This document shows, piece after piece, positions 49,391 to 64,000 of a stretch of DNA of 64,000 bases. Each line of letters opens with the position of its first letter. Position 1 is the stretch's first letter. The translations under genes were made by a program, and so were the position numbers. Source of the DNA: an uncultured delta proteobacterium (lineage in GTDB: Bacteria; Desulfobacterota; Desulfobacteria; Desulfobacterales; UBA2156); the NCBI GenBank assembly GCA_963736855.1, contig CAVTQK010000014.1, positions 8,654 through 72,653 of the forward strand, in the 5' to 3' direction. Below the pieces are notes generated by a model. It did no database searches, was not told the DNA's origin, and worked only from the letters and a program-made list of their open reading frames with translations.

Positions 49391-50179
49391 ATGAGCATGA
49401 GTCATCAAGTAAAAACTAAAATAAACCGGTTGATCACAGAATGGCCCAGAGGCACGGTTGGAGTTGCATCTTATTTGAACACCTTGGGCTTCGGCCATGA
49501 TCTTCTGGCAAAATACAGAAAGAGCGGATGGATAGATTCCTTTGGAAGAGGCGCCTATACCCTCAATGAAGACAAAGTGGAATGGGCTGGTGCCCTTTAT
49601 GCGCTTCAAACCCAACTGAAGCTCAATGTCCATGCAGGAGGGAAAACATCCCTTGAACTGAAAGGTTATGCCCATTACCTGCCAGTTCAACAGAAGAAGA
49701 TATTTCTGTATGGCCCTCTCGGGCAGGTTTTGCCCATGTGGTTCAAAAGAGCCCCTTTAGGTGTCGATATAGTCATGACGCGCACAAATCTGTTTCCTGC
49801 CCACGTCCAAGATGGTTTTTCAGACTACACTGAGAGGGATTTCTTTTTAAGAATCTCCTCCCCTGAAAGGGCAGCGCTGGAAATGCTTCATTTGGTCCCC
49901 CGAAAAGTGACTTTCGAGGAGGCCTCATTAATCCTGGAGAATCTCGTCAGCCTCCGTCCGGAGCTTGTTCAGAAATTGCTTGATTCATGCCGGTCTGTCA
50001 AAGTGAAGAGGCTCTTCCTTTACATGGCGGAGAAACACGAGCATGCCTGGCTTTCGCAGCTCGATCTTTCCCGAGTCGATTTGGGGCATGGAAAGCGGAT
50101 GCTGGTTCCGAACGGAAGGTATGAGAAGAAATATCGGATCACAGTTCCCAGGGATCATCAGGAAGAGGTCTCCGGATGA
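49391..50179 (+). CDS. abiEi: Type IV TA antitoxin AbiEi
   Basis: TKINRL, Y.KSGW, SSPERAALE, SVKVKRLFLY. Confidence 0.88.
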   Translation: MSMSHQVKTKINRLITEWPRGTVGVASYLNTLGFGHDLLAKYRKSGWIDSFGRGAYTLNEDKVEWAGALYALQTQLKLNVHAGGKTSLELKGYAHYLPVQQKKIFLYGPLGQVLPMWFKRAPLGVDIVMTRTNLFPAHVQDGFSDYTERDFFLRISSPERAALEMLHLVPRKVTFEEASLILENLVSLRPELVQKLLDSCRSVKVKRLFLYMAEKHEHAWLSQLDLSRVDLGHGKRMLVPNGRYEKKYRITVPRDHQEEVSG

Positions 50180-51093
50180 AGGATACGGTATTCTTCAGAC
50201 AGGCGGAATTGCTCCTCAGAATCTTGCCTTTGATTCATAGAGAGGAGGTGTTCGCCTTGAAGGGAGGGACGGCGATCAACTTCTTCGTTCGGGACCTCCC
50301 TCGTCTTTCAGTGGACATAGACCTTACGTATCTTCCGGTGAATGAAAGAGACTTTGCCCTGAACGATATCCGTAATGCTTTGATACGTATCTCTGAAGAG
50401 ATCCAGAGGAGGATACCAGGGACAAAAGTGACCTTGAGAAAAATCCACGGCGCAAATATCTTGAAGGGCATGGTTGTGGAAAGAGAGGGAGTCACCGTCA
50501 AAATAGAGCCAAATCTGGTCATGAGAGGCTCTGTGTATCCCCCCGAAGTACGAACCTTGTCCAGGAAAGCTCAAGAGGTCTTTGAACTTTCTATCCAGAA
50601 CCGAATCCTTTCCACTGAAGAATTGTACGCCGGGAAAATCTGTGCAGCCCTTGACCGTCAGCATCCCAGGGATCTCTTCGATGTGCATTGGCTGATCAGA
50701 AATGAGGATCTCAGCCTTAGAACAAGAAAGGCATTCCTTGTCTATGTCATAAGCCACCCAAGACCCATGATCGAAATCCTGAATCCCCGCTTCAATGACA
50801 TACGGGATGTCTTCGAAAATGAATTCAAGGAACTGGTAACTGAGAAAGTGAGCTATGAGGAGCTTTGCGCGACAAGAGAAAGCTTGGTTTCAATGCTAAC
50901 GAATGAGGTTACGCCTGAGGAAAAACACTTCCTCGTTTCAGTAAAGGAAGGCGTGCCCAAGTGGGATCTTCTTGGGCTTGAAGGAGTTGAGAAACTGCCC
51001 GCAGTCAAGTGGAAGCTCCTGAATATCGGGAAAATGGAACCATCAAAACACAGGGATGCTGTTCATAAGTTAAGGGATTATGTCGGTATGTAG
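50176..51093 (+). CDS. abiEii: Type IV TA nucleotidyltransferase toxin AbiEii
   Basis: FALKGGTAIN..RLSVDIDL, GKICAALDRQHPRDLFD. Confidence 0.92.
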   Translation: MKDTVFFRQAELLLRILPLIHREEVFALKGGTAINFFVRDLPRLSVDIDLTYLPVNERDFALNDIRNALIRISEEIQRRIPGTKVTLRKIHGANILKGMVVEREGVTVKIEPNLVMRGSVYPPEVRTLSRKAQEVFELSIQNRILSTEELYAGKICAALDRQHPRDLFDVHWLIRNEDLSLRTRKAFLVYVISHPRPMIEILNPRFNDIRDVFENEFKELVTEKVSYEELCATRESLVSMLTNEVTPEEKHFLVSVKEGVPKWDLLGLEGVEKLPAVKWKLLNIGKMEPSKHRDAVHKLRDYVGM

Positions 51094-51297
51094 AACCCAC
51101 CTGCCCGGGTAAGATGTGATCGTTGGGCGGCTCAACCTTTCTTCAGAAGCAAGGAAAAGTCCGCAAAATCGCCTGGAAATGGGAGAAAAGCCTTCAATTG
51201 ACAGTCGCGCACAAGAAGAATAGAATCGCGTTGTAATTGGCTATTCGTTACAGACAGTTACCCAAGGCAAACACAACTCACTGGTGGACATGGCCTA

Positions 51298-52221
51298 TTC
51301 GGCCTGGTCAGCGATTTCCTTTCCTCATGCTGGAATCATCTGCGCTCCCAAAGCCGGGTCAACAAGCTGCAAGGTCGTATCCAATTCGGTGGCGCCTTGA
51401 GCGGACGCGACACGTCCGCCACGCAAAAAACGATAAGTGGACTACTCAAACTGATGTTTCCCGATCCCGAAGCCAATATCCCCAACGATGCCATCGAGTG
51501 GGCTGCTAAGCTCGCTCTGGAATGTCGCCGAAGGGTGAAGGAGCAACAAAAACGCATAGGGGCTGCCGAATTCCGAAACACCCATTTCAGTTTCACCATG
51601 ATCCCCGATGGGATTGAGCAATTCGTCTCAACACCTGAACTTCACCGCGAGAACAGCATCGGCAGCGACCCGCTCCCTGCCGATCAGATATGGGCGTTGT
51701 CTCCCGGCGGCACTGATGAGAATCCCGGACTGTTCTGCATTGAGGTGACGGAAGGACCAGGAAGTGGGGTGAAGATTCTCAATCAAAGCCCTCCGGGGCC
51801 GCTCAAGGAGAGCGTGCGCTGTGCCGAACAAAATCTCTATGCCAGAGCAAGGGAACTGGTCGGTGATCGCGATCCACGTGCCCATGAGTTCACCATCCAG
51901 TTCCGTGCTTTTGATGCCTGCAAGAGCGCTGCGGCAACAGGAATACCCATCTTGCTCGCCATGAGTTCCGCGCTGGTCGAGCGCAGCCTGGAAGGCGGAC
52001 TCGTCATCGTGGGCGGACTCAATCTCGGGGGATCCATCGAGCCCATATACAACGCCGTCAGCATCATCGAACTGGCTGCCGACAAAGGAGCCCAGAAAAT
52101 CCTCATTCCTGTCTCTGCGCGCAAGCAACTTTTCGAATTACCTGACGACTTGGCCACCAAAGTCATTGTCGTGTATTATGCAGATGCAAAAGATGCCCTG
52201 CTCAAAGCGCTCAGTGAATAA
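51298..52221 (+). pseudogene. brxL: 5'-truncated BREX Lon-like protease BrxL (C-terminal part only)
   Basis: FGLVSDFL..GALSGRD, ALECRRRVKEQQKRIG, GGLNLGGSI; no start codon or N-terminal domains. Confidence 0.8.
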
Positions 52222-52277
52222 AAATCTGATATCAAATTAGCGTCTCAAAAACAAGAAACATACCTCCAGACGCAGAT

Positions 52278-52298
52278 GGGCACAATTTCGGGCACAAT
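52278..52298 (+). repeat. Tandem GGGCACAAT repeat, arm-type integrase-binding site candidate (left of att core)
   Basis: GGGCACAAT-TTC-GGGCACAAT. Confidence 0.55.
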
Positions 52299-52353: not shown

Positions 52354-52413
52354 TGGTGCCTGGAGCCGGAATCGAACCGGCACGGGGACTTAGCCCCAAG
52401 GGATTTTAAGTCC
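52354..52413 (-). tRNA. 3' fragment of tRNA-Leu(TAA), from anticodon arm to CCA: att-site duplication, not a full gene
   Basis: Reverse complement GGACTTAAAATCC-long variable arm-GCCGGTTCGATTCCGGC-TCCAGGCACCA; 5' half absent. Confidence 0.85.
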
Positions 52414-52523
52414 TAGAACACAAAACATGAAATATTGTTCAATTACAACTACTTGATCTTGTGGCTATTTTTCAATGCGTTTTTGGTTTCATTTGGAAAT
52501 ATTTGAAAAAATTTGACCTTGAC

Positions 52524-52543
52524 GGGCACAATTTGGGCACAAT
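52524..52543 (+). repeat. Tandem GGGCACAAT repeat, arm-type site candidate (right of att core)
   Basis: GGGCACAAT-TT-GGGCACAAT. Confidence 0.55.
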
Positions 52544-52964
52544 TTTTTATCCATCACATTCCCAACAACAAAACCAAAACGGAAATACGGGCAGTCTGTA
52601 TATTTCAAAAACCGACTAAAAATTCATCTATTTGGAAATCCGAACCGTCCACACATTAGAGTGTTTGCGATCTCCTCCCCCACGGTCGCAATTGAAAACG
52701 TTCTGACCCTTATAGCATAATGTAATAACATAACAATTCCATTTGGTTATCCTCATCTTCCTCATTACAATCGGACCTTACCAGTCATCATTTCAATCCT
52801 GTAAAACTGAAAGAAAAGTGAGCAGAATAGACCCTAATCAGGTAGGATAGTATAGAATAATCTAGGATAGCATCACGTCAAAGAAGGAAGGAAGGAAGAA
52901 AGGGGTGTTAGGGCTATCCTACTGTAATTTAGATGTATTTTTATTATGGTACGGTAAAAAGCCC

Positions 52965-53111
52965 ATGGTCACATACCAAGACATCAAATCAAAGCCCTAT
53001 TTCAAACAGATCCTTCGTTATGTCGAGGAGTATTTGAATTGTCGGTTCCAGCGTACTGGTAAAGATAAATACAGCGCCCTTGTCCTTCTCCTTGCCTTCT
53101 GCTCGGTGTAA
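52965..53111 (+). pseudogene. Possible remnant of a primase-type zinc-finger N-terminus
   Basis: ..EEYLNCRFQRTGKDKYSA followed by CP in a shifted frame; interrupted by the cassette array. Confidence 0.3.
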
Positions 53112-53154
53112 ACCTGGTGTAAGGACTCTCACCTCACAAGCCCTGTGCCATGCT

Positions 53155-53210
53155 CGGTAACGAAAAAATCAGCCGGAGCGTAGCGATCGGCTGGATTGAC
53201 CGTGTTGGAC
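53155..53210 (-). other. attC site
   Basis: Minus strand GTCCAAC..ATCCAGCCG..CGGCTGAT..GTTACCG with one extrahelical base. Confidence 0.75.
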
Positions 53211-53300
53211 TATGGTTTATGTGTTGCATTATGTCCACTGTTACTGTCAAAGGCTAACTGGCTATCCTGATGCCAGAATTGCCGTGAGATAATGATTCTC

Positions 53301-54125
53301 TTACTGCACCGTGACGACGACTGAAGCCTCTTTGTTGAAGGGGTTAGTGCGCACAGCTAGGGAGAAGAGAAAAGGATAGTTATTTTTCAGATACTTCATA
53401 TAGATAATCCATTCTGCCACCATCAGGTGGTAGCCCCGTTTGATATCTCCTGCAAGATGATTTACGTCTGGTTTCGGCACATCTTCGAAAGAACTACGGT
53501 AAGCTAACTCTTCGGTGAGATGAAAGACGGCGCGTAACAGATCGGTAAAGGACTGATGCTCCATGAGCACAGGGTTTTCTAAGAGCCTCAGGAGAAAGTC
53601 TCGTTTTGCTGTGAGAAAGCCCTTTAGTGCAAGAAAATCTACCTGCGAGACATCAACGCCGAAGTCGTGCTTCACAGACTCCTTACTGGCGGCAATAAAC
53701 TCCTTGTCTTTCCAGGTTTCGGTTATGATTAAACTGCGCCTGATGGCGTCGAAATTGGGGTCGTAACGGGCGAATCGGGAGAGAAGTTCCAGACCGACCT
53801 CGCTGTAAAAGACACCGATAATCATGTTGAGTTTTTTCATGCGGCTTTCCATCTCCCGTTTTTCCAGCATGATCTCTGTAACATTGGCTATGACGCCAAG
53901 AAACGTGCCCACTCCGGTGACGATGATAAAAAGAGCAAAGATTTTCCCAAAATTAGTTACTGGATAGACATCGCCGTATCCCACCGTTGCCATGGTAACG
54001 ATGACAAAATAAAAGGAATCGATAAGAGACTTTTTCTCAATGGTCATCATGCCTATCGTACCTAAAACGATGACCGCAAAGAATATGATGAGGTATATTT
54101 TCAGCCGCGATTTGATATTTCCCAT
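53301..54125 (-). CDS. Potassium channel-family protein (gene cassette)
   Basis: TMATVGYGD selectivity filter. Confidence 0.9.
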   Translation of the reverse strand: MGNIKSRLKIYLIIFFAVIVLGTIGMMTIEKKSLIDSFYFVIVTMATVGYGDVYPVTNFGKIFALFIIVTGVGTFLGVIANVTEIMLEKREMESRMKKLNMIIGVFYSEVGLELLSRFARYDPNFDAIRRSLIITETWKDKEFIAASKESVKHDFGVDVSQVDFLALKGFLTAKRDFLLRLLENPVLMEHQSFTDLLRAVFHLTEELAYRSSFEDVPKPDVNHLAGDIKRGYHLMVAEWIIYMKYLKNNYPFLFSLAVRTNPFNKEASVVVTVQ

Positions 54126-54160
54126 TAGGTAGTTCTCATTTATCTTTTTCTGCTGTACGC

Positions 54161-54249
54161 CGATAACGGGGCAGCGAGATGAGCCGCCGTCGGCTGGGGG
54201 CGGAAATTGCGTGTTTTATGCAATTTGCCGTGCCAGCCGACCGAAGCGG
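54161..54249 (-). other. Truncated attC (R' half and long stem only)
   Basis: CGATAAC..TCGGCTGG/CCAGCCGA and AAATTGC/GCAATTT stem; R'' end replaced by the next attC. Confidence 0.5.
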
Positions 54250-54319
54250 AGCGAACGTCAAGCTCACCTGGACCGAGGGCCGCAAGGCCCTTGGGATCAG
54301 GTGAAGCGACAGGTTCAGA
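54250..54319 (-). other. attC site
   Basis: AGCGAAC..GCTCACCTG..CAGGTGAAGC..GTTCAGA (plus strand); overlaps the corA stop. Confidence 0.75.
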
Positions 54320-55250
54320 ACCATCTGTTTCTTATAAATATCAGGACGCTGAGTAACGACAGAGTGAAAGAAATTCCTGTAACAATAAAGAAAGCATGGG
54401 GAGAGTGCTCAAACGGTAAATCGATATTCATCCCGTAAATGCTTGCAGTCAGCGTGGGAATCATCAGAATTATTGTTATTGATGTCAGAATTTTCAAGAC
54501 AACATTCAGATTATTTGAGATAACCGATGCGAACGCGTCCATCATTCCGCTTAAAATGTTACTGTATATGTTAGCCATTTCGATTGCCTGTTTGTTGTCA
54601 ATCAGCACATCTTCCAGCTTATCTTTGTCATCGGAGGTCAGTTTCAGCAGTTCCATTTTCAGCAGCCGTTCCATCATAAGTTCATTGGATTTCAGAGATG
54701 TTGTAAAAAAAACGAGACTCTTTTCTATATTCAGAAGTTTTATAAGCTCCTCGTTTTTTAACGACTTCTGCAATTCTCTTTCAATTTCTCCGGTACGTCT
54801 GTTTATTTCTTTCAGATGTTTTAGATAAAGCAGTGATGTTTTCAAAAATATTTGAAGGACAACACTGCTTCTTTTTCCGGTAATAATGCCTTTTGTTCTA
54901 CTGTTGCATAAATCCAGAATGTCCGTAATATCAGAAGAACTTATTGTAACAATTGTATCTTCTTTTGTGAGTATAATTCCCGCAGGGATTGTTGTGAAAG
55001 GGATTTCCGGATTGATTTCATCATATTTCGGTATTCTTAACACAATAAGCAGAACGCCGTCTTCGGTTTCGATTCTTGCCCTTTCATCAACATCCAGCGG
55101 GTCTGTCAGAAAATCGGTAGGGATAAACATTTCGCCTGACAACTTTACCAACTCACTTTTTTCCGGACTGATTACATTAATCAGGCAGTGTCTTTCAATT
55201 TTATCAGCCGGAACAAATCTGTTTTCTGACCATCTTAATATTTTTATCAT
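54315..55250 (-). CDS. corA: CorA-family Mg2+ transporter (gene cassette)
   Basis: DPLDVDERARIE, SNNLN, YGMN, two C-terminal TM helices. Confidence 0.92.
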   Translation of the reverse strand: MIKILRWSENRFVPADKIERHCLINVISPEKSELVKLSGEMFIPTDFLTDPLDVDERARIETEDGVLLIVLRIPKYDEINPEIPFTTIPAGIILTKEDTIVTISSSDITDILDLCNSRTKGIITGKRSSVVLQIFLKTSLLYLKHLKEINRRTGEIERELQKSLKNEELIKLLNIEKSLVFFTTSLKSNELMMERLLKMELLKLTSDDKDKLEDVLIDNKQAIEMANIYSNILSGMMDAFASVISNNLNVVLKILTSITIILMIPTLTASIYGMNIDLPFEHSPHAFFIVTGISFTLSLLSVLIFIRNRWF

Positions 55251-55285
55251 GATATTATTACCTCTCAGAATACTACTGCATAGCG

Positions 55286-55351
55286 GCATAACATGATGCT
55301 CACCGGCGTGGCGCGCCGTTTTGCCACGTCCGGTGCAGCTACTTTTTCTAC
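55286..55351 (-). other. attC site with a mutated R'' box
   Basis: GCATAAC..GCTCACCGG..CCGGTGCAGC..(T)TTCTAC. Confidence 0.65.
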
Positions 55352-55566
55352 CTTTCCCTTCCTTCTCTGATAATATCCACTATTTCTTTTGTCGTAATTT
55401 TCGCTTTAATAGTAGGTACATCGAGCGGAGAAGAAAGATTTCTTTCCGGAACTAATGCAAATGTTCGGCCGTCTTTTCTTCGAATCAATACCTTTCCTGT
55501 ATTTTCAGCCTGTTCAAGCACCAAGGCAAGTTTTTGTCTAGCTTCTGAATATGTATAAACTTGCAT
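55348..55566 (-). CDS. Phd/YefM-like antitoxin (TA cassette)
   Basis: YTYSEARQKLA..VLIRRKDG. Confidence 0.85.
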   Translation of the reverse strand: MQVYTYSEARQKLALVLEQAENTGKVLIRRKDGRTFALVPERNLSSPLDVPTIKAKITTKEIVDIIREGRER

Positions 55567-55567
55567 T

Positions 55568-55960
55568 TTATACCTCCAATGTTTCGACTTTTAGATTTTG
55601 GGCCGCTGCCTTTAACTTCTTATCTAACGTCAATAAAGGCGATTTATATCGAATAGCACAATCCAAAAAATATGCATCGTAGGCATACATGTTTACAGCC
55701 TTAGACAGGCGTAAGACATTAGAAAAGTCAAGTTCGACATACCGAAGGGGGATGTTAGCAAATATTGATAGGCCTTTTTCGGCTTCATCAAGTGATAACC
55801 TGTTTTGCTTAAACATGGCCGAGAAAGCATTGCCAATTTCCCATGGAATGGAACCAGGCCCTATTAATGTATTCCCGGTGGTTAACTCAATAATTTTAAT
55901 TCGTTCAGGTTTACCAACGATAACTGCAATTAAGGCAGATGTGTCAATTACGATATCCAT
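55568..55960 (-). CDS. vapC: PIN-domain toxin (toxin-first TA cassette)
   Basis: VIDTSA, WEIGNA, YDAYFL, LLTLD. Confidence 0.88.
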   Translation of the reverse strand: MDIVIDTSALIAVIVGKPERIKIIELTTGNTLIGPGSIPWEIGNAFSAMFKQNRLSLDEAEKGLSIFANIPLRYVELDFSNVLRLSKAVNMYAYDAYFLDCAIRYKSPLLTLDKKLKAAAQNLKVETLEV

Positions 55961-56027
55961 ATCAATCTCCAAAACGCTATTTTCAGACAATTGTACAATG
56001 GATGGCGGATTTGTCAAGAATAATGTG

Positions 56028-56150
56028 GTAGAACGCTCATCCTCACAGGTGAGCAGGGATTTTGGCCTTCTTCAAATGCACATTAACACCAAATTATGTA
56101 TGAGCTTTAGCGGCCCGCCCCTGCGAATCCTGTGCAGGGTGTTGTTATGT
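56028..56150 (-). other. attC site (long, 123 bp)
   Basis: GTAGAAC..CCTCACAGG..GCAGGG..CCCTGC..CCTGTGCAGG..GTTATGT. Confidence 0.7.
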
Positions 56151-56212
56151 GCTGCAACATTAAGACCCCAATATTAAAAGCAATAATTTTACAATACATT
56201 TTTTATAAGCGC

Positions 56213-56416
56213 CTACCTTTTAACAACAAATGGTAAAGCCACAAAAATGATACCGGCAATAACAAGAAAAAAGACATTCGAAATAAAATACGGGAACAAC
56301 ATTAGCCCTATTCCGCTAATAAATGGAATGATGGCTTTTTGCTTTTTCCCATAAACAAAAAATCCAAGTCCTATAGAACCAAAAATCACTCCCCAAATTA
56401 ATGTTGAAGTATTCAT
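56213..56416 (-). CDS. Small membrane protein (gene cassette)
   Basis: 67 aa, hydrophobic, FGSIGLGFFVYGKKQ..FPYF. Confidence 0.75.
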   Translation of the reverse strand: MNTSTLIWGVIFGSIGLGFFVYGKKQKAIIPFISGIGLMLFPYFISNVFFLVIAGIIFVALPFVVKR

Positions 56417-56430
56417 TAATATATTTCTTC

Positions 56431-56491
56431 ACATAAGGCCTGCGTCACGGGCGGCATGCACCTTGCCTTCCCGTGGATGCGGAGGTTATTT
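56431..56491 (-). other. attC site with a mutated R' box (AAC changed to AAG)
   Basis: ACATAAG..GCGTCACGGG..CCCGTGGATGC..GTTATTT. Confidence 0.7.
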
Positions 56492-56983
56492 TCAATCCAA
56501 TATTTTCTTGAAAAGCACCATGGGATTTTCCTTTCCAAGATAATCTAATGTGACAGGCACATCATCAATTATTCCGTTTCCTGCCTCGATCTCAAAGCCC
56601 ATCTTTCTATGAAAATTTATTGATAGCTTATTAACTGGAGAGGTGCAGGACTTTACAATTGATCTGTCATTTGCCTTGCAAGCCGCATAAAATTTTTCAA
56701 ATAGTCGGCGCCCAATACCAAATTTTCTAAATTGAGGATGTACACCAGCAAAATGGATATATCCGACTCTTTCCTCGGATTGGGACATAAAGCCAACCAA
56801 AAAGCCGATCAACTCATCTACGATTTCAGCAATAAATGTACTTTGATTGAAATGGATGAAAAAGACCTTTAGGACCGAGGATGATAAATCACGTCCACCC
56901 CACCACTCAGGCATTACAGAAACAATTTTTTCGTGATCAGAAGGCTTTCCATTTCTGATTTTAAGATGCTCAAGTTCGCTCAT
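56492..56983 (-). CDS. GNAT-family acetyltransferase (gene cassette)
   Basis: YIHFAGVHPQFRKFGIG, N..S..FH..MGF. Confidence 0.9.
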   Translation of the reverse strand: MSELEHLKIRNGKPSDHEKIVSVMPEWWGGRDLSSSVLKVFFIHFNQSTFIAEIVDELIGFLVGFMSQSEERVGYIHFAGVHPQFRKFGIGRRLFEKFYAACKANDRSIVKSCTSPVNKLSINFHRKMGFEIEAGNGIIDDVPVTLDYLGKENPMVLFKKILD

Positions 56984-57007
56984 AAGCTCTCCGGACCTTC
57001 CAGTAGA

Positions 57008-57093
57008 AGATAACATAGAATTGAGGGGCGCGCGAAAAACTCTTCCGGAAATGCCGCATTTTTCTTCGCGTCCCCTCGAATGACTGGTTCGCT
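57008..57093 (-). other. attC site
   Basis: AGATAAC..TTGAGGGG-CGCG..CGCG-CCCCTCGAA..GTTCGCT. Confidence 0.8.
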
Positions 57094-57105
57094 CGCGACT
57101 CGCAA

Positions 57106-57996
57106 CTAGGGCTCCGCAGGAGCCACGGGTTCCTTCACCGGTGTCTCTTCATCTGGTCGGGCGGCGGCGGTCTCTTCGACAGTTTTCGGGTCGCGCCTGC
57201 CCGCCAATACCGTTGCTGGCATCGCGCGAACAACCGCATTGCCAAACTCCGTCCAGACAAGAGTGACAGCGCACTTCTCCTCTGCGGGAAAGGCGTACAC
57301 TCGCAACATGCCCATACGCTGAAGATCAGATACAGCTTCGGTCAGATCCGACGTAACCCCGCTCAAGTCATCCTCAGGCTTCTTTGAGAAGACATTGAAG
57401 GGGTAAGGCCACCAACTGCGAATCAGCTTAACATCCCTTAGCGACATCGCCTGGATTGCCCTCGAGACCTGGAGGGCCTTTGTCTGGTCGACAACCTTGA
57501 GCGCATCGCGTATCAGAGCCCCAATGGTCTTGCGGGAGGATGCTGTGTCGCCTGCCGGGTAACGATGGATGCGCACGCCGCTCACGTCGAATAGCAGCTG
57601 GTGCTCATGGTCATCCCGGATGACGACAACCTCTTCGGCTTGGCGCATTGCGTGTGCAAGGCCCAACTCGTACATGACGTTTCCGTTTGGGTATCGGGGT
57701 TTCCTATGATTGCGCTTGAGCAGATCACCCAGTCCGAGACATGGCGGGCAACTGACCGCACTCACATCCACAAGCACTAGGCGCGCATGCGCGATTCCAT
57801 CGAGGATGTCGACCAAGATGCTATCCGAGGTTACCCGCGTGTCCACGCGAGTCGCAGAGAGGCCGCAGTCTCGTGCCGCAGGTTGGATCGCGCCATCCCA
57901 CACGGCGTCGAAGCGCTTGGCAAATGGCATTGCCACGAAAACCTCGTCGCGAATGGCTGGCTTCCAATAGTCGATGAAGAAATCGCGCGGAAACAT
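57106..57996 (-). CDS. Nucleoside-deoxyribosyltransferase/TIR-like domain protein (gene cassette)
   Basis: VFVAMPF, RVD, I..A..VLVDVS, NGNVMYELGLAHA, LLFDV. Confidence 0.7.
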   Translation of the reverse strand: MFPRDFFIDYWKPAIRDEVFVAMPFAKRFDAVWDGAIQPAARDCGLSATRVDTRVTSDSILVDILDGIAHARLVLVDVSAVSCPPCLGLGDLLKRNHRKPRYPNGNVMYELGLAHAMRQAEEVVVIRDDHEHQLLFDVSGVRIHRYPAGDTASSRKTIGALIRDALKVVDQTKALQVSRAIQAMSLRDVKLIRSWWPYPFNVFSKKPEDDLSGVTSDLTEAVSDLQRMGMLRVYAFPAEEKCAVTLVWTEFGNAVVRAMPATVLAGRRDPKTVEETAAARPDEETPVKEPVAPAEP

Positions 57997-58032
57997 TTAC
58001 ATAGACCTTCCTCTCTACGCTCCACGTAGCCG

Positions 58033-58103
58033 AGCGAACGTTACGGGTGAGCGGATTTTTTGCTCGCCCCGGGCAAAAAATACGCTCCACCCGCTGGTTG
58101 GGC
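58033..58103 (-). other. attC site
   Basis: AGCGAAC..GGGTGAGCG..CGCTCCACCC..GTTGGGC. Confidence 0.85.
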
Positions 58104-58107
58104 TTGT

Positions 58108-58566
58108 TCATCTCTGCCGTTCATTCGTTTCCTTATTAGATGTCTGCCGCAATTGCTGATAGACACCGAGTCGGTCAGTGATCTGCCAATGTCCTGCGAG
58201 GCGATCGCCGTCGAAGTAGTAGACGGTGGCACCTGACATCTTGATCTTCTTTCCTGTGGCGGGAAATCCCGGGATATCGCCCTTGTGCGTGGCTGACCAA
58301 AGCCAAGTCATCACGACAGCGTTGCCGTCGGCAAAGAGTCCTTGTATGTCGAAAAGTTGATCTGGAAACGCTGCGCGAAGCATTGTGACGCGCTCCTTGT
58401 AGCCAGCGAGGTCGAGTTCGCGACCGTCCCACGGATCGCCAGGATCGTGATGAATCGTGTATCTGGGCGCTATGTACTTGTCCGAGGCCTCAACGTTACC
58501 CTCGCTCCACACCTCGCGGGTGAACTGGGTCAGGATCTTCTTCTTGGCTTCGCTAGTGATTGACAT
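58108..58566 (-). CDS. SnoaL-like ester cyclase (first cassette)
   Basis: AAFPD, ATHKG..GFPATGKKI, F.GDRLAGHW. Confidence 0.88.
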   Translation of the reverse strand: MSITSEAKKKILTQFTREVWSEGNVEASDKYIAPRYTIHHDPGDPWDGRELDLAGYKERVTMLRAAFPDQLFDIQGLFADGNAVVMTWLWSATHKGDIPGFPATGKKIKMSGATVYYFDGDRLAGHWQITDRLGVYQQLRQTSNKETNERQR

Positions 58567-58582
58567 CCGTTTGTTCCTTGAA

Positions 58583-58633
58583 GCCCAACCATTGATTATC
58601 AGGTCGATTTGCCCTGATAATTGAATTATCGGG
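58583..58633 (-). promoter_or_regulatory. attI-like array start with an adjacent inverted repeat
   Basis: GCCCAAC crossover box matching the first cassette's R''; ATTATCAGG-N9-CCTGATAAT, and a third copy ATTATCGGG. Confidence 0.55.
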
Positions 58634-58910
58634 AGAATTTTCCTTTATTTGTGATTATAGAAGAAACACCTTATACTGTCAAAACCTTCATCGTTTCAGG
58701 AATATTTTAGTATAGCATAGAATAGCACACCCCAACAATCACCATCCATTCCCTATTCCTCATAAACTCAATTATAAAAATTCTCCATCCTGGTCGCCTT
58801 TAAATTTCTCCTCCCCCGCGTGTAATCGCCACCCCTATCTTTGAGTCGGCTCATTCTTTTCCTTCACATTTTTATACCCCCCCCACCGTCAGAAAGGAGG
58901 TGAATCCTCC

Positions 58911-59130
58911 ATGGCTTATACCCCAGAACTTTCTTATCAGTCCTCTTGCACCCTGCGCCGAATCTCGTGGGCATTGGGATGTACCCATGACCAAAGGAAT
59001 CGAGTATGTTTTCGAGCACCTTCCCAAAGTTCTCGATTCTCAAAAGGTTTGTCGGGCATGCAAAGACCCGTCCAAATGCTCAACCTGCGCTTTTAATTAT
59101 CCACAGAAAGGAGGCAATCCCACCGATTAA
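58911..59130 (+). CDS. Small Cys-rich hypothetical protein (one apparent frameshift)
   Basis: AGGAGG RBS; MAYTPELS..RRISWALG continues in another frame as PMTK..CRACKDPSKCSTC. Confidence 0.55.
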
Positions 59131-59160
59131 GTCCGTTTAACCCAAACTTCATTCACCCCA

Positions 59161-59198
59161 GGCAAGAGCCCGTCGGTTTATCCGATCGGGCTTTTGTC
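59161..59198. terminator. Intergenic hairpin
   Basis: GGCAAGAGCCCG..CGGGCTTTTGTC. Confidence 0.55.
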
Positions 59199-59235
59199 GT
59201 TTTTAAACCCTATTCAATCCAAAAGGAGGAACACC

Positions 59236-59872
59236 ATGAACCGAGAACTTCTGGAAAAACCTTTCGACCCTTCTCAAATCAAACAGAGGGATGGGAACTT
59301 CGGCAAGAGACTGGATTACATCGAAGGCCATGCCGTGATTCAGCGATTGAATGAGGCCCTGGATGCCCAATGGTCCTTTGCCATCCTGGAACATCACATT
59401 CTCAAAGAGACCGATGAGGTTATGGTCCTGGGCCAGTTGAAAACAGGAGAGGTCGTCAAATCTCAATTCGGCTCCAGCCGAATCACCCGCGCCAAAGAGA
59501 CAGGAGAGCCTATTTCATTAGCCGATGATTACAAGGCAGCGGCAACGGATTCTCTGAAGAAGTGTGCCACGATGCTTGGCGTTGGGTTGCATCTTTACGG
59601 CAACGATAAGGGCAAGCCCTCGGTCCCCCAATTCCAACACTCCCAGAGAAAGCCCCAAACCCCCTGAACCCCAAAAAGGCAACGGAGGAAACGGCGGCAA
59701 CGGAAACAATCGCCTTTCTTCCGCTCAATACAAGTACATCCTTCGACTTGGAGATGAGGCAGGAAACACCCGCCAGGATTTGGACCGCATGTGCTTAAAG
59801 ATGTTCGGAGTCGTTACCCAGCATCTTTCCAAATCCGATGCCCATGCCATGATTCAACACCTGCTCAATTAG
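59236..59872 (+). CDS. Rad52/Rad22 (Sak)-family single-strand annealing protein (frameshift near 59640)
   Basis: LDYIEGHAVIQRLNE, KAAATDSLKKCATMLGVGLHLY; C-terminal SSAQYKYI..LSKSDA helical domain. Confidence 0.85.
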
Positions 59873-59956
59873 CCCACCAGTCCCTTAATCCCTTTTCCAT
59901 ATGTGGAATTTCTTACCGCGCCACAGGTGCGCCCAAAATCAGCAAGGAGGTGAACC

Positions 59957-60788
59957 ATGAACCGTCCATCGACGTTACAGGCATTCAGCCAAGACCTTTG
60001 TATCAGTTACAGCCAGATTTCAACGTACCTGAACTGTCCGCTTCGCTATCGGTTCCAGTATGTGGAAAACCGACCCAAGGAGCGCATCAGCATTTCGTTA
60101 CCCTTCGGAGCCGCAATTCACATGGCGATTGCCCTCTATTATCGGACCCTGAAAAAGCAGGGAACGTTGGAGCCCCTGGAGTCCCTTTGTCAACGCTTCG
60201 AGGATTGTCTTGGAAGTGGACCTGGAATCCAAAGACATTCCCATCATCTACAAGAAGGATATGCCCAATCGGCATAAAGCCCTTCAAATGGGAAAGAACC
60301 TGCTCAAGTGCTTTTACGAGACCGTTGACCTGAAGGGTTATGAGATTCTGGGTGTGGAACTCCCGCTTTCCGCAACCCTTTACACGGAAGACGGGAAGGC
60401 CACGGATTTTAAACTCATTGGCATTCTGGACCTTGTCATTCGGGATGAAAAGGGAGAGGTCCTTGTTGTAGACAGCAAAACGGCTTCCAAGTCTATCGCT
60501 CAAACAACGGCAGACGATGACCTGCAGATGAGCGCCTATGGGTATCTTCTGGCTTCAAACAAGTTCGTGTTTCCCACCGCCTCGGTAACATGCCAGTTTC
60601 AGGTGCTCCGTAAACTGGTCGAACCCAAATTGGAATATGTCGAAACAACCCGCACGGCAGCCCATCGGAAACGCTTTACCAAAATCGCCAATTCCGTTTT
60701 AGCGGCCATCGATTCTCAAATCTATTTTCCGCATGCTTCCTGGATGTGCGCCGATTGTCCGTATTCCGAGGCATGTAAATCCTGGTAA
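59957..60788 (+). CDS. PD-(D/E)XK RecB/Cas4-like exonuclease (frameshift near 60210)
   Basis: SYSQI..CP, FGAAIH, GILDL, VDSKT, LQMSAY, C..CPY...C. Confidence 0.85.
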
Positions 60789-60821
60789 CACCCAAAAACA
60801 ATCTGACTTAAGGAGAAGATC

Positions 60822-61756
60822 ATGAAAAAGACAGCGTTGCTCGAAGAAGTCATCCACACCGTTCACGAACACTCCGTAAACCATTATGATGATACCGTTC
60901 CGATCCACGATATGCGGTTTGAGTCCCTGGAACGAATGGACATCTCTGGTCAATCGTTCGGAGTCCTCCCCAGCGCCCAGAAATTATTCGCCAATCGGTT
61001 GCGGGTCCCGCATTCGTATCTGATGCGGTGTCCTGCAGAACTCCAGAAAGACAATCTCCAGTACTGGTTAGACCGTGAAGCGAGAACCGAGACACGCTCT
61101 TTTGTCGGTTCGATGGCGATTCTTTGAGAGCCGTGTTTACCGAGCGTTATACCGTCCTGGACCACATGGAGGTGCTGACCAAGATGCTGGAATACGGCTT
61201 CGATTCTGCCGCAGAGGTTCATTTTTCCCTGGATCAGGAAATCATGGTGCTCAAGGTCCCTGAATATGGACGGACATTTGATCTGTCGGAAAAGGACAGG
61301 ATTGTTCCAGGAATCAGCATCGCCAATTCCGAGGTGGGTGTTCTGGCTCTGTCCATCGAGGCATTTTTTTATCGGCTTGTATGCACCAATGGGCTTATCG
61401 CCAAAACAGCGACGGATGCCCGTTACAAGCACATCTCCCGCAAGGTCATGGATGAGTTTCCCATGATTCTGGAAGGGGTCATTCGCCAGTCCAGCAGAGG
61501 ACACGAACGGTTCCGCATCTCCTTGCAATCGCCCGTGGATAATCCCGAAAGAAGCATCGAGGCGTTCGCAAGGCAGTTTATGATTCCCCAGGAGCAAGCC
61601 CAAATCATTCAGCAGGCGTTTTATCAGGAGCCAGGGGCAACCATGTTTCACATCATCCAGGCATTCACAAGGGCAGCCCAGGACAGAAGTTTGTCTGCTT
61701 CGGATTCCTATCGCTTGGAAAGGGCGGGAGGTGCCATTCTCGGAATGGTGAAATAA
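60822..61756 (+). CDS. DUF932-family protein (frameshift near 61100)
   Basis: RAVFTERY, GISIANSEVG, RLVCTNG. Confidence 0.8.
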
Positions 61757-61775
61757 CCAGTAACATCACAAAAAG

Positions 61776-61795
61776 AAGCCCTCATGGTCCATTTA
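61776..61795 (+). repeat. 20-bp direct repeat, copy 1
   Basis: AAGCCCTCATGGTCCATTTA identical to 62756-62775. Confidence 0.8.
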
Positions 61796-61920
61796 TCTGA
61801 AGTATTGGTCATGTAAATCCTGGTAAGCCTTTCTCACCCTTTATTTCTTAAAAACCCAAAATCATCATCCAGATCGTCCAGATCGCTTTTATGGGCGGTC
61901 TGGGCGATAAAGGAGGACTT

Positions 61921-62736
61921 ATGAATACAACTGTCAAACAAGCCCTGAATGTCGTTTTGGAGAAGTTTAAAACAGGAGACATTCCCGAAGCCGTTGCTTA
62001 TTCCATATTTCCCATTCCTGATATTCCAAGTGCCAGATGGTCTCTGATGAACCGTACCATCATGTTTTTATTCGGGACCCAGGATGCCAGGGGTTATCGC
62101 CAGTGGCAGCAGGTCAATCGTCATGTGAAAAAGGGAGCCAAAGCACTCCATATATTAGTCCCCTTTATCAAGAAAACAGAGAGCCAGGGGGAGGAAGTGC
62201 AAGTTCTTCTCGGATTCGGTTCAAAGCCCGTCTTTAAAGTTCAAGACACGGACGGAGAGCCCCTGGATTACCAGAACATCCAAGTCCCTTCATTTCCGTT
62301 GATTGAAAAAGCAAAAGAATGGGGGATTTCGGTTAAGGCAGTTTCAGGCGGTTCTGCCTATTACGGATTCTATGATCCCAATCGTCAGGAAATCGTTTTA
62401 GCCACCCAGGAAGAATGTGTGTTTTTCCATGAACTGGCTCATGTAGGTCATGAAAGGGTCATGGGCAGGTTGAAAAATGGTCAGGATCCTTTTCAGGAAA
62501 TTGTGGCAGAACTGGTGAGCCTGATCCTTTGCCGCCTGGTGGGGAAAAGCGGTGAAAGACATCTTGGGAACAATTATCGGTACATCGAGCGCTATAGCGA
62601 AAAATTCAAACTGACCCCGCATCAAGCATGCATGAGAGTCCTTGGAGATGTGGAAAAGGTTCTGGATTTAATCCTATCGGTCGAAAGCCACGAACAAGAA
62701 GCAGAAGAAGAAACCGTCAAACCCGTAACCACATAA
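61921..62736 (+). CDS. ardC: ArdC-like antirestriction protein (ssDNA-binding domain plus HExxH metallopeptidase)
   Basis: WSLMN, GYRQWQ..RHVKKG.KA..ILVP, PVF..DTDG, FFHELAH, EIVAE. Confidence 0.8.
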   Translation: MNTTVKQALNVVLEKFKTGDIPEAVAYSIFPIPDIPSARWSLMNRTIMFLFGTQDARGYRQWQQVNRHVKKGAKALHILVPFIKKTESQGEEVQVLLGFGSKPVFKVQDTDGEPLDYQNIQVPSFPLIEKAKEWGISVKAVSGGSAYYGFYDPNRQEIVLATQEECVFFHELAHVGHERVMGRLKNGQDPFQEIVAELVSLILCRLVGKSGERHLGNNYRYIERYSEKFKLTPHQACMRVLGDVEKVLDLILSVESHEQEAEEETVKPVTT

Positions 62737-62751
62737 AACAATAACCACAGA

Positions 62752-62796
62752 CAAAAAGCCCTCATGGTCCATTTAAAGGACTGTGGGGGCTTTTTG
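62752..62796 (+). terminator. Hairpin containing repeat copy 2
   Basis: CAAAAAGCCCTCATGGTCC..GGACTGTGGGGGCTTTTTG. Confidence 0.65.
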
Positions 62797-62818
62797 CGTT
62801 TATGGGAGGAAAGAAGCC

Positions 62819-63010
62819 ATGACCAAAGAAAAAGAAGTCCTGTACGAGGATTCAGAGCGGCTTAAAGAGATTCTGATCAAGGTTCTGAAAGGGAAGAAAT
62901 ATCGCCTGGATTGTGGGCATCATTGCACTTTTGCCCACCATTTTGGAAACGATATCACTATCTACAACGGAAAAGATTTGAAGATTGTGTGTAGCCAGTG
63001 TGGCTATTGA
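62819..63010 (+). CDS. Small putative zinc-binding protein
   Basis: GGAGG RBS; LDCGHH and CSQCGY. Confidence 0.65.
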   Translation: MTKEKEVLYEDSERLKEILIKVLKGKKYRLDCGHHCTFAHHFGNDITIYNGKDLKIVCSQCGY

Positions 63011-63133
63011 AACAGGGGCTCTAAAAAAAGGCATGTTAGACCTGATGCCATTCTCACTATTAAAAATATCGTCAAGGTCGTCCGAATCTTCGTTGGGCGG
63101 CATAGGACGGTCTAGACGATGGAAGGAGTCTAC

Positions 63134-63191
63134 GTACAACGCTGAGATCAGCCGCCGAGTTTACGAGGTCGGCTGGATCTACTTGTTCGCC
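63134..63191 (-). other. attC site of the second array
   Basis: GTACAAC..GATCAGCCG..CGGCTGGATC..GTTCGCC; R'' matches the cassette start GGCGAAC at 63678-63684. Confidence 0.85.
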
Positions 63192-63381
63192 CTGTAATTA
63201 TTTTTTTTAACTCTGAAATTCCGATTGTTGGAGCATCCCTCTCTTCTATCTTAGCTTCTCTAAGGCATCGAAGGTCTTCATATGAAGCAAGCGCTTCCTG
63301 TATTTTTTGAAATTCGTCATAAGGTAAAACAACAAATTCTTTTTTCCCATTTTTCTTTATTATTTGGGCAGTTAATTCCAT
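63148..63381 (-). CDS. Phd-like antitoxin (TA cassette)
   Basis: IIKKNGKKEFVVLPYDEF..ED; reads into attC. Confidence 0.8.
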   Translation of the reverse strand: MELTAQIIKKNGKKEFVVLPYDEFQKIQEALASYEDLRCLREAKIEERDAPTIGISELKKIITGRTSRSSRPRKLGG

Positions 63382-63392
63382 AAAGCCTCCTT

Positions 63393-63641
63393 TTATCGAT
63401 AAACTTCTCGGCGATGACGAACTCTGTAAACAATTATGCTCTTATTTTCGATTTCAAACAACACCCTGTAATTCCCAACTCGCAAACGATATTCAGGTGT
63501 AAAATTTGTAAGCCGTTTAACATCTCCCGCCAAATCATCACCCATTCCTTCAATATCTTTGATGATTTTTGTTTGTATGCGTGATGATAGCTTTTCAATA
63601 TCCTTCACTGCTCTTGGTTTAAATTGTATTTCATATTTCAT
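63393..63641 (-). CDS. relE: RelE/ParE-family toxin (toxin-first TA cassette)
   Basis: A.KDIEKL, YRLRVGNYRVLF, RHRREVYR. Confidence 0.92.
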   Translation of the reverse strand: MKYEIQFKPRAVKDIEKLSSRIQTKIIKDIEGMGDDLAGDVKRLTNFTPEYRLRVGNYRVLFEIENKSIIVYRVRHRREVYR

Positions 63642-63899
63642 AATTTTACGAATCAAATTTATAGATCCTCATTTATGGGCGAACATATAATATACAGACT
63701 TATCTCTTTCGCTCTTGCAACAGATATTTTTATCTTTGACAACAATATTTAAGTTTCCCTTTATCAGAAAGTTTGTTTTGTGTCAAAATATCCAAATTGC
63801 ATAAGAAAAATAATTCCTTAGAAGGATGTCATCGATTTACAGCGAACACAATTGAAAGCGAGTCGCAGTCAATGTGTTATTGAAAAAGGAGGCTTCACC

Positions 63900-64000
63900 A
63901 TGGACTTTTTCGACGATGATTTCGAACTTGAAGATTTTGCCCTTATCGGCGGCTTAATCGGTGCTGTCGAGGAAGAATTAGAAGAGGAACGAAAGAAAAA
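63900..64000 (+). CDS. Acidic hypothetical protein, partial
   Basis: AGGAGG RBS; MDFFDDDFELEDF.. runs off the window. Confidence 0.5.
   Translation, partial: MDFFDDDFELEDFALIGGLIGAVEEELEEERKK

Follow-up and report, generated by a model that had tools for sequence, protein, structure and literature searches.

Solo attI-like sites of two classes at the starts of integrase-less cassette units on a decayed tRNA-Leu island of a Desulfobacterales genome

Clusters of attC sites that have no integron integrase (CALINs) and single attC sites without one (SALINs) are known and common (PMC4889954; 10.1101/2022.09.11.507474). According to these sources, half of the CALINs are found in genomes that encode the integron integrase IntI and 95% have no intI pseudogene nearby (PMC4889954; 10.1101/2022.09.11.507474); another states that CALIN cassettes can be mobilised in trans (10.1101/2025.06.18.660453). 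Here a stretch of 64,000 nt from an uncultured Desulfobacterales bacterium (assembly GCA_963736855.1), called the window, was analysed, in which two cassette units lie on an island at a tRNA-Leu gene. Like CALINs and SALINs they consist of attC-bounded cassettes without a neighbouring intI gene. Unlike those described in these sources, both units keep an identifiable attI site of a class resident in the genome, and one has a consensus promoter. Earlier CALIN surveys could not see such attI because IntegronFinder matches only attI of classes 1 to 3. The locus is regarded as a CALIN and SALIN variant in which attI is retained, located on a tRNA-Leu island in decay.

Integrase-less arrays on mobile elements are also described for phages and for the Shewanella prophage M16-3, whose CALIN has its own attI (PMC9892861). 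M16-3, however, also has a complete integron, whereas the window island has solo attI of two classes (attI without intI). In addition, one window attI class heads arrays in complete phage records in which no tyrosine recombinase was found. Phage attC were tested there as donors, and illegitimate recombination was proposed as the entry route (PMC9892861). In class 1 and 2 integrons, delta-attI cassettes show that a truncated attI off its canonical position can recombine; they close cassettes inside complete mobile integron arrays, whereas the window attI heads an array without intI (PMC12901181). The host-defence-evasion operon (ssb-bet-exo) of IncC plasmids and of SXT/R391 integrative and conjugative elements likewise combines an annealing protein, an exonuclease and an anti-restriction gene on a mobile element (PMC7498323). 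The island differs in having a predicted Rad52/Sak annealase and PD-(D/E)XK_1 nuclease in place of RecT and YqaJ, and no conjugation genes were found among the element proteins scanned. Outside subscription journals and supplements, no paper was found that describes this element family, an island carrying solo attI of both classes, or a minimal attI in phages of this group that lack an integrase.

Attachment sites at the starts of the cassette units

The window is positions 8654-72653 of contig C14 in a 3.9-Mb genome of 25 contigs (G000), and its right edge is the contig end. Labels C6 to C25 denote contigs of this genome, L and G numbers related loci and records, and X numbers sequencing runs. 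The attC sites were sought with a covariance model trained on 43 attC from other genomes or contigs, none of them from the window. In the attC alignment the named structure is paired in 89% of cells, against 74% in shuffles. Eight sites of 18-37 bits are found in the window, all for minus-strand cassettes, seven on the left and one on the right (Table 1), and the remainder of the window has no further site. A control with 400 kb of host DNA gave a single 15.3-bit match in the same run that regained 7 of the 8 window sites, and 420 kb of viral DNA gave none. Two hand-written scanners, superseded by the model, had recovered only 4-5 of the 8 sites together with false positives, and nhmmer with the alignment was insensitive (15 matches genome-wide).

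Cassette starts were compared with their own R″ at the four variable nt. Three or four agree in five of the seven left units and all four in the right unit. Thus six of the eight units have the complementary start of a genuine cassette; the CorA and potassium-channel units do not. The left unit, with seven attC on one strand and no intI near, is a CALIN (at least two attC). The right unit, with one attC, is a single cassette and fits a SALIN. An earlier reading of the window, made without database searches (the sequence-only reading), had proposed two minus-strand arrays; the left one stands, whereas the right “array” is one toxin-antitoxin cassette. Many further attC clusters are present on C9, C15, C17 and C21.

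No TIGR02249 match was found on C14, and module genes and an acidic backbone gene occupy the positions where intI would be expected. This agrees with the sequence-only reading, in which neither array start had an intI beside it. An intI remnant at each start, the observation named in advance as counting against the proposed platform, was likewise not seen; the attI part of the platform is nevertheless present at both. Of the parts of a complete integron, intI is missing at the unit starts, and an attI of class A at 58587 and one of class B at 63682, both overlooked earlier, are recognised by sequence.

The class A site (attI-A, site 1) is 85% identical over 62 bp to DNA upstream of an intact intI on C24 (E 4.7e-14), and on this homology it is taken to be an attI. 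Two further copies are on C16, and matches are found in 56 of 301 genomes of the order. Neighbourhoods were counted at 29 non-self loci, using the best match per genome. The AAC at the boundary is kept in 26 of them, and the DNA past the AAC differs. Of the 29 loci, 16 have no intI, and 13 have one of the C24 type 150-280 bp beyond attI-A, intact in 5 and broken or reduced to a stump in 8; the enzymes encoded are 59-84% identical to that of C24 and 34-46% to that of C22. A scan for promoters of the cassette promoter (Pc) type gave a 12/12 consensus at site 1 and listed none at site 2. The site 1 promoter looks like part of the element backbone because its -35 flank is common to an attI-less paralogue on C25 and not to C24; it is predicted to act as Pc. 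The idea that attI itself moves as a cassette was dropped as unsupported, since no IntI-made boundary (GTT) was seen by eye at the upstream end of solo attI. About 200 bp behind one solo attI-A, at C16:7310-7345, is a sequence like a CRISPR (clustered regularly interspaced short palindromic repeats) repeat of type I-C, as judged by the consensus.

The 17-nt core of site 2 is identical at 16 of 17 positions to a site ~250 bp upstream of a broken long-type intI on C13, where the first cassette start agrees with its R″. The core pattern has six matches in the genome, each at a cassette start and one of them before intI, while the reversed control has none. A weaker additional copy is on C9. Solo copies of class B on C6, C9, C19 and C20 each have a model-found attC on the array side, and in an alignment of nine copies the core is invariant and the DNA left of AAC variable. 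Site 2 is accordingly described here as a predicted attI of a second class (attI-B). The surrounding 145-bp block has no real relative among 300 other genomes. The core occurs in five of these, attI-like in two (L218, L219) and within genes in three. A viral search with the same core gave 59 matches, none with attC, which were judged to be chance and used as a control.

Seven more solo attI are present in G000 (C6:2964, C8:52748, C9:29949, C19:5995, C20:10118, C16:7106 and C16:1869), most of them heading cassettes, and solo attI are common in this genome and in the order. Short GC-rich palindromic units without genes are often the first behind attI (C6 left of 2964, C20 left of 10118, C16 6937-7105, L022:15620-15690).

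A search of the whole genome for intI, suggested by the sequence-only reading, gave four matches over the cut-off (C21, C24, C22, C13) and none on C14. The reading frames are intact on C24 (class A) and C22 (class B), so that both classes have an intact integrase elsewhere in the genome. The two intact genes, C24:202104 and C22:2463-4193, are separated from their own arrays by insertion sequences; thus solo sites may be their main remaining targets.

Proposed loading of cassettes in trans and competing readings

The reading preferred here, with a probability of roughly 0.6, is that a decaying tRNA-Leu(taa) element took up two attI of resident integron classes without intI, and that host IntI loaded or exchanged cassettes there in trans. 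The stretch would be the left two-thirds of an element whose family has a tyrosine integrase, a primase, an operon of Sak, exonuclease and DUF932 genes (with or without RadC or ArdC) and variable cargo. Its lineage would have acquired the two attI minus their intI genes, most likely by deletion of intI followed by carriage on the element. attI-A would have landed immediately behind a leftward cargo promoter belonging to the element, so that promoter, attI and seven cassettes came to follow one another, and attI-B would have come in as a block of ~870 bp between orf63 and the acidic gene, with one toxin-antitoxin cassette. Ordinary attC x attI recombination by IntI-A (C24) and IntI-B (C22), each presumably acting on its cognate site, would have brought in or replaced cassettes after intI had been lost.

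Different cassettes are found at the same solo site in related copies. The C8 paralogue has the same junction of attI-B and acidic gene with a different toxin-antitoxin cassette. At a tRNA-Glu in another genome (G005:C5), part of attI-A with the promoter and backbone is kept at 86% and is followed by a different cassette. A 213-nt contig of run X4 covers 58587-58783 and has 16 other letters before the crossover. Together with the intact integrases elsewhere, these copies give indirect support to the earlier proposal of integrase-less docking sites on a mobile island that use an integrase in trans.

The strongest support for loading in trans comes from outside the island. The attI-A core is found in 11 IMG/VR records, representing ~8 distinct phages. 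No tyrosine recombinase (PF00589) was found in the four records searched for it, three of them rated complete, and no IntI in the other seven, one rated complete. On the array side, five records have at least two attC and three have one. The first cassette start agrees with its own R″ in all seven viral arrays tested, and the attI-A homology does not extend beyond ~36 bp of the crossover. In G305, a complete record, two divergent solo attI flank a small central region, and G308 was confirmed as a phage by terminase and portal genes. An attI-A core heading phage arrays without an integrase suggests that mobile elements may borrow the integron integrase of the host. In L238 (G305), L242 (G306), L244 (G307), L246 (G313) and L247 (G308) the 36-bp core heads 2-6 attC-bounded small genes; the arrays include a methyltransferase, and no integrase was found. 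At L246:5920-6031 an attC lies ~25 bp upstream of the solo attI, which places the attI core inside a short gene-less unit and could bear on attI movement.

Several observations weigh against loading in trans. The attI of G005:C5 is cut and its crossover shifted. The X4 contig has a depth of 2.5 and only 16 differing letters. Cassette copies within the genome are 91-96% identical, indicating no very recent exchange. In the window copy the primase is gone and genes are split, and the ParE cassette at site 2 is one and the same across runs X1, X4 and X6, which fits inheritance. Three of the 11 viral records have no attC, one of these having just 302 bp on the array side. Finally, the different first cassettes could also predate the loss of intI.

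In an alternative reading, two whole integrons or blocks of them entered the island as cargo, lost intI and were never loaded again, so that the attI are fossils. The graded loss of intI beside attI-A described above, the seven or more other solo attI copies in the genome, the damaged attC boxes, the intron stump, the missing primase and the constancy of the site 2 cassette in three runs are all as expected from such remnants. The alternative does not account well for attI/backbone junctions that are shared and yet followed by different cassettes (C8 and the window, G005:C5, X4), or for a minimal, near-identical attI heading clean arrays in unrelated, integrase-less phages, and it is held to be unlikely, though by no means negligible. 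The contrast with a simple decayed integron drawn in the sequence-only reading was overstated, since the docking sites are attI left by intI loss, as is common in the order (16 of 29 loci without intI).

The sequence-only reading went further and saw a dedicated family of cassette-harvesting elements with two conserved docking positions, in which capture is aided by single-stranded transfer. Homologous module loci were examined over 4 kb (39, from 69 fetched, some redundant), and none has attI-A, the site 2 block or intI. Site 2 is empty in all 14 other module loci, with the next backbone gene within ~80 bp after orf63. For site 1 the survey took in 18 separate related elements, each with 600 bp or more upstream, and used an attC threshold of 20 bits. 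Such attC are present in three (L022, L042, L038/L060), and L038 has at site 1 of its homologous module a class B solo attI with a cassette, identical at 17 of 17 positions to an intI-adjacent site of L149. L088 and L034 have attC downstream of the module on the other strand. The background of attC in host DNA is near zero. Thus of the cassettes expected at the same two positions in homologues, those at site 1 are occasionally found, whereas site 2 shows empty alleles, and two conserved docking positions were not borne out. The remaining 15 elements have no attC at site 1. Cargo of other kinds is the usual DNA of defence islands, and site 1 is a hotspot for cargo in general, integron parts being taken up there at times. 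As to single-strandedness, attI is recombined as double-stranded DNA (10.1101/2022.09.11.507474), while the partner that enters single-stranded is the attC; a single-stranded element would presumably favour attC x attC events and not capture at attI. Relaxase and type IV secretion system families were absent among 96 proteins picked from the element and its relatives, a set that covers the elements in part and leaves the origin of transfer unsearched. This fuller model is very improbable, and for site 2 it is largely refuted. Less probable still is that the cassettes entered secondary genomic (attG) sites and resemble attI by chance. Insertion at attG is known (10.1101/2022.09.11.507474), and the site 2 core is short and AT-rich, with the 59 attC-less viral matches noted above. 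However, the likeness of site 1 to an intI-adjacent site extends over 62 bp, and the site 2 core occurs six times against none in the control, each time at a cassette start. An attG would be expected to combine a GWT core and CRGM at positions 6-9 with a lack of attI homology. Both sites are attI-homologous, and neither the side on which the CAGA motif lies nor its distance suits attG.

The island, its module and the cassettes

The island boundary is a fragment of a tRNA gene, and ARAGORN found no tRNA in the window. The intact tRNA-Leu(taa) on C23 adjoins a PF00589 tyrosine integrase, so that, with C14 and C23 linked as proposed, both the duplicated tRNA 3′ end and the integrase of a tRNA-integrated element are present, as the term “tRNA-Leu island” in the sequence-only reading implied. 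The first bases of C23 resemble a continuation of the acidic gene cut at the C14 end (compared by eye with L031), and C23 shares a gene with G003, located there downstream of the module. The island is therefore probably ~17 kb long with no intI inside, if the contigs join in this way. In G003 the left end runs into a primase with CHC2 and Toprim domains, of which the window retains only a 5′ stump joined to the intron stump; no full close copy was found in the genome. To the left of the att core, positions 49391-52221 hold an AbiEi/AbiEii pair and a C-terminal fragment of BrxL. Arm-like repeats occur to either side of the core, and the stretch is probably another element, likewise decayed, that sits in tandem at tRNA-Leu.

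The plus-strand Rad52/nuclease/DUF932/ArdC module reported earlier is confirmed by family matches, with the correction that its first three genes are each split in the assembly. At two of the three breaks, contigs of run X1 show a one-base indel difference, so that the breaks are either strain-specific or assembly errors. The ArdC-like gene scores weakly in Pfam (20.2 bits, cut-off 22.6) and matches PHROG 7245 (E 1.7e-11). It is present in 5 of 39 loci (L053, L070, L077, L078, L079), absent in L022 and L031, and skipped between its direct repeats in run X6. The ArdC of R388, reportedly an anti-restriction protein, serves as its comparison. Elements of relatives carry RadC, UvrD, primase-helicases and defence cargo. 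The genome itself has two decayed paralogues, on C8 (at a transfer-messenger RNA gene, tmRNA) and on C25, the latter with the same backbone, non-cassette cargo and no attC. A repeated hairpin precedes module genes (61857-61908, 63068-63121), and in L022 and L031 it also separates the nuclease gene from the DUF932 gene; as a guess, it may be a recombination hotspot or a single-strand promoter.

Table 1. Positions of the main features of the island in the window (a dot marks a feature without strand).
Feature	Position	Strand	Remarks
Island att core, tRNA-Leu(taa) 3′ part	52357..52413	-	57 bp identical to intact tRNA, C23:5614-5670; weak Rfam tRNA match
Direct repeat, integrase-arm-like	52524..52543	.	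repeated near 52276-52296 and at C23 integrase end; also in G003 element; putative function
Element CHC2-Toprim DNA primase gene, 5′ stump	52965..53074	+	70.7% to G003 primase start
Group II intron 5′ stump, cassette orientation, at last attC	53075..53157	-	77% to C9:661608-661689
attC 7, last, damaged	53155..53210	-	18.4 bits
Potassium-channel-like cassette gene	53301..54125	-	PF07885; 95.8% copy in C19 array
Short gene-less or decayed unit	54168..54249	-	no attC model match
attC 6	54250..54319	-	27.6 bits
CorA Mg transporter cassette gene	54315..55289	-	PF01544
attC 5	55286..55351	-	26.8 bits
PIN toxin/Phd antitoxin cassette	55348..56017	-	PF01850, PF02604
attC 4	56028..56150	-	33.2 bits
Cassette gene, 67-aa hydrophobic protein	56213..56416	-	open reading frame; no Pfam family
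attC 3, R′ mutated	56431..56491	-	19.4 bits
GNAT acetyltransferase cassette gene	56492..57016	-	PF00583
attC 2	57008..57093	-	32.8 bits
Cassette gene, 296 aa, weak TIR-like	57106..57996	-	PF10137 under cut-off; no PADLOC match
attC 1	58033..58103	-	24.2 bits; bottom-strand fold z -4.9
First cassette gene, SnoaL-like	58108..58566	-	PF07366; start agrees with own R″
Solo attI, class A (predicted)	58587..58648	-	crossover AAC at 58587-58589
Sigma-70 promoter TTGACA-17-TATAAT, into attI-A	58654..58682	-	12/12; sole perfect one in 52400-64000
Conserved 61-aa first module gene	58911..59096	+	conserved in homologous loci; no family
Rad52/Sak single-strand annealing gene, split in assembly	59236..59872	+	PF04098; single 211-aa frame in L031
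PD-(D/E)XK exonuclease gene, split in assembly	59957..60788	+	PF12705; single frame in L031; one-base indel in run X1 contigs
DUF932 gene, split in assembly	60822..61756	+	PF06067; single 312-aa frame in L031; one-base indel in runs X1, X3
ArdC-like anti-restriction gene, optional	61921..62736	+	flanked by 23-bp direct repeats
orf63, conserved 63-aa gene	62819..63010	+	conserved in homologous loci
attC of sole right-hand cassette	63134..63191	-	36.9 bits; start agrees with R″
ParE/RelE toxin and Phd-like antitoxin cassette	63148..63656	-	PF05016, PF02604; 90.8% copy on C22
Solo attI, class B (predicted), with flank common to C8 paralogue	63682..63815	-	core 63682-63698
Acidic backbone gene, start only (contig end)	63900..64000	+	conserved; at expected intI-B start position

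PADLOC assigned no cassette gene. The PIN/Phd cassette has a promoter-like site of its own (56017-55990, 11/12 consensus), and the CorA unit is absent between two attC R″ boxes in a run X1 contig. The stump at the last attC, which we take to be a group II intron partly from the 5′-end consensus, has a relative on C9 that adjoins a reverse transcriptase-like fragment, and it is fused to an attC of the 54250 type in runs X1 and X6. Both intron 5′ ends point the same way as the cassettes and lie at the R′ end of attC, and an intron on C22 lies in the usual IIC-attC orientation. Introns in the same orientation as the cassettes are rare in PMC7923331.

Meaning for integrase-less arrays

Where CALINs come from and how active they are is an open question, in part because attI outside classes 1-3 could not be searched for. 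With two attI classes now defined by sequence, the integrase-less arrays of the order can be sorted by whether the docking site is kept or missing. A tentative proposal, about which we are somewhat more doubtful than convinced, is that the minimal attI of ~36 bp is a portable, selected docking module of Desulfobacterales-type hosts. Islands and phages without intI would set it downstream of promoters of their own, at times twice, on either side of a central module, and would rely on the host integrase to build and reshuffle their accessory-gene arrays, parasitising the host integron.

The attI definitions and the phage arrays offer a testable route to the CALIN question, while the locus alone is a decayed example. 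If cassettes do reach solo attI in trans, active capture sites would be undercounted in each genome, with at least nine solo copies here, and islands and phages would tap the cassette pool of the host for a few dozen bases.

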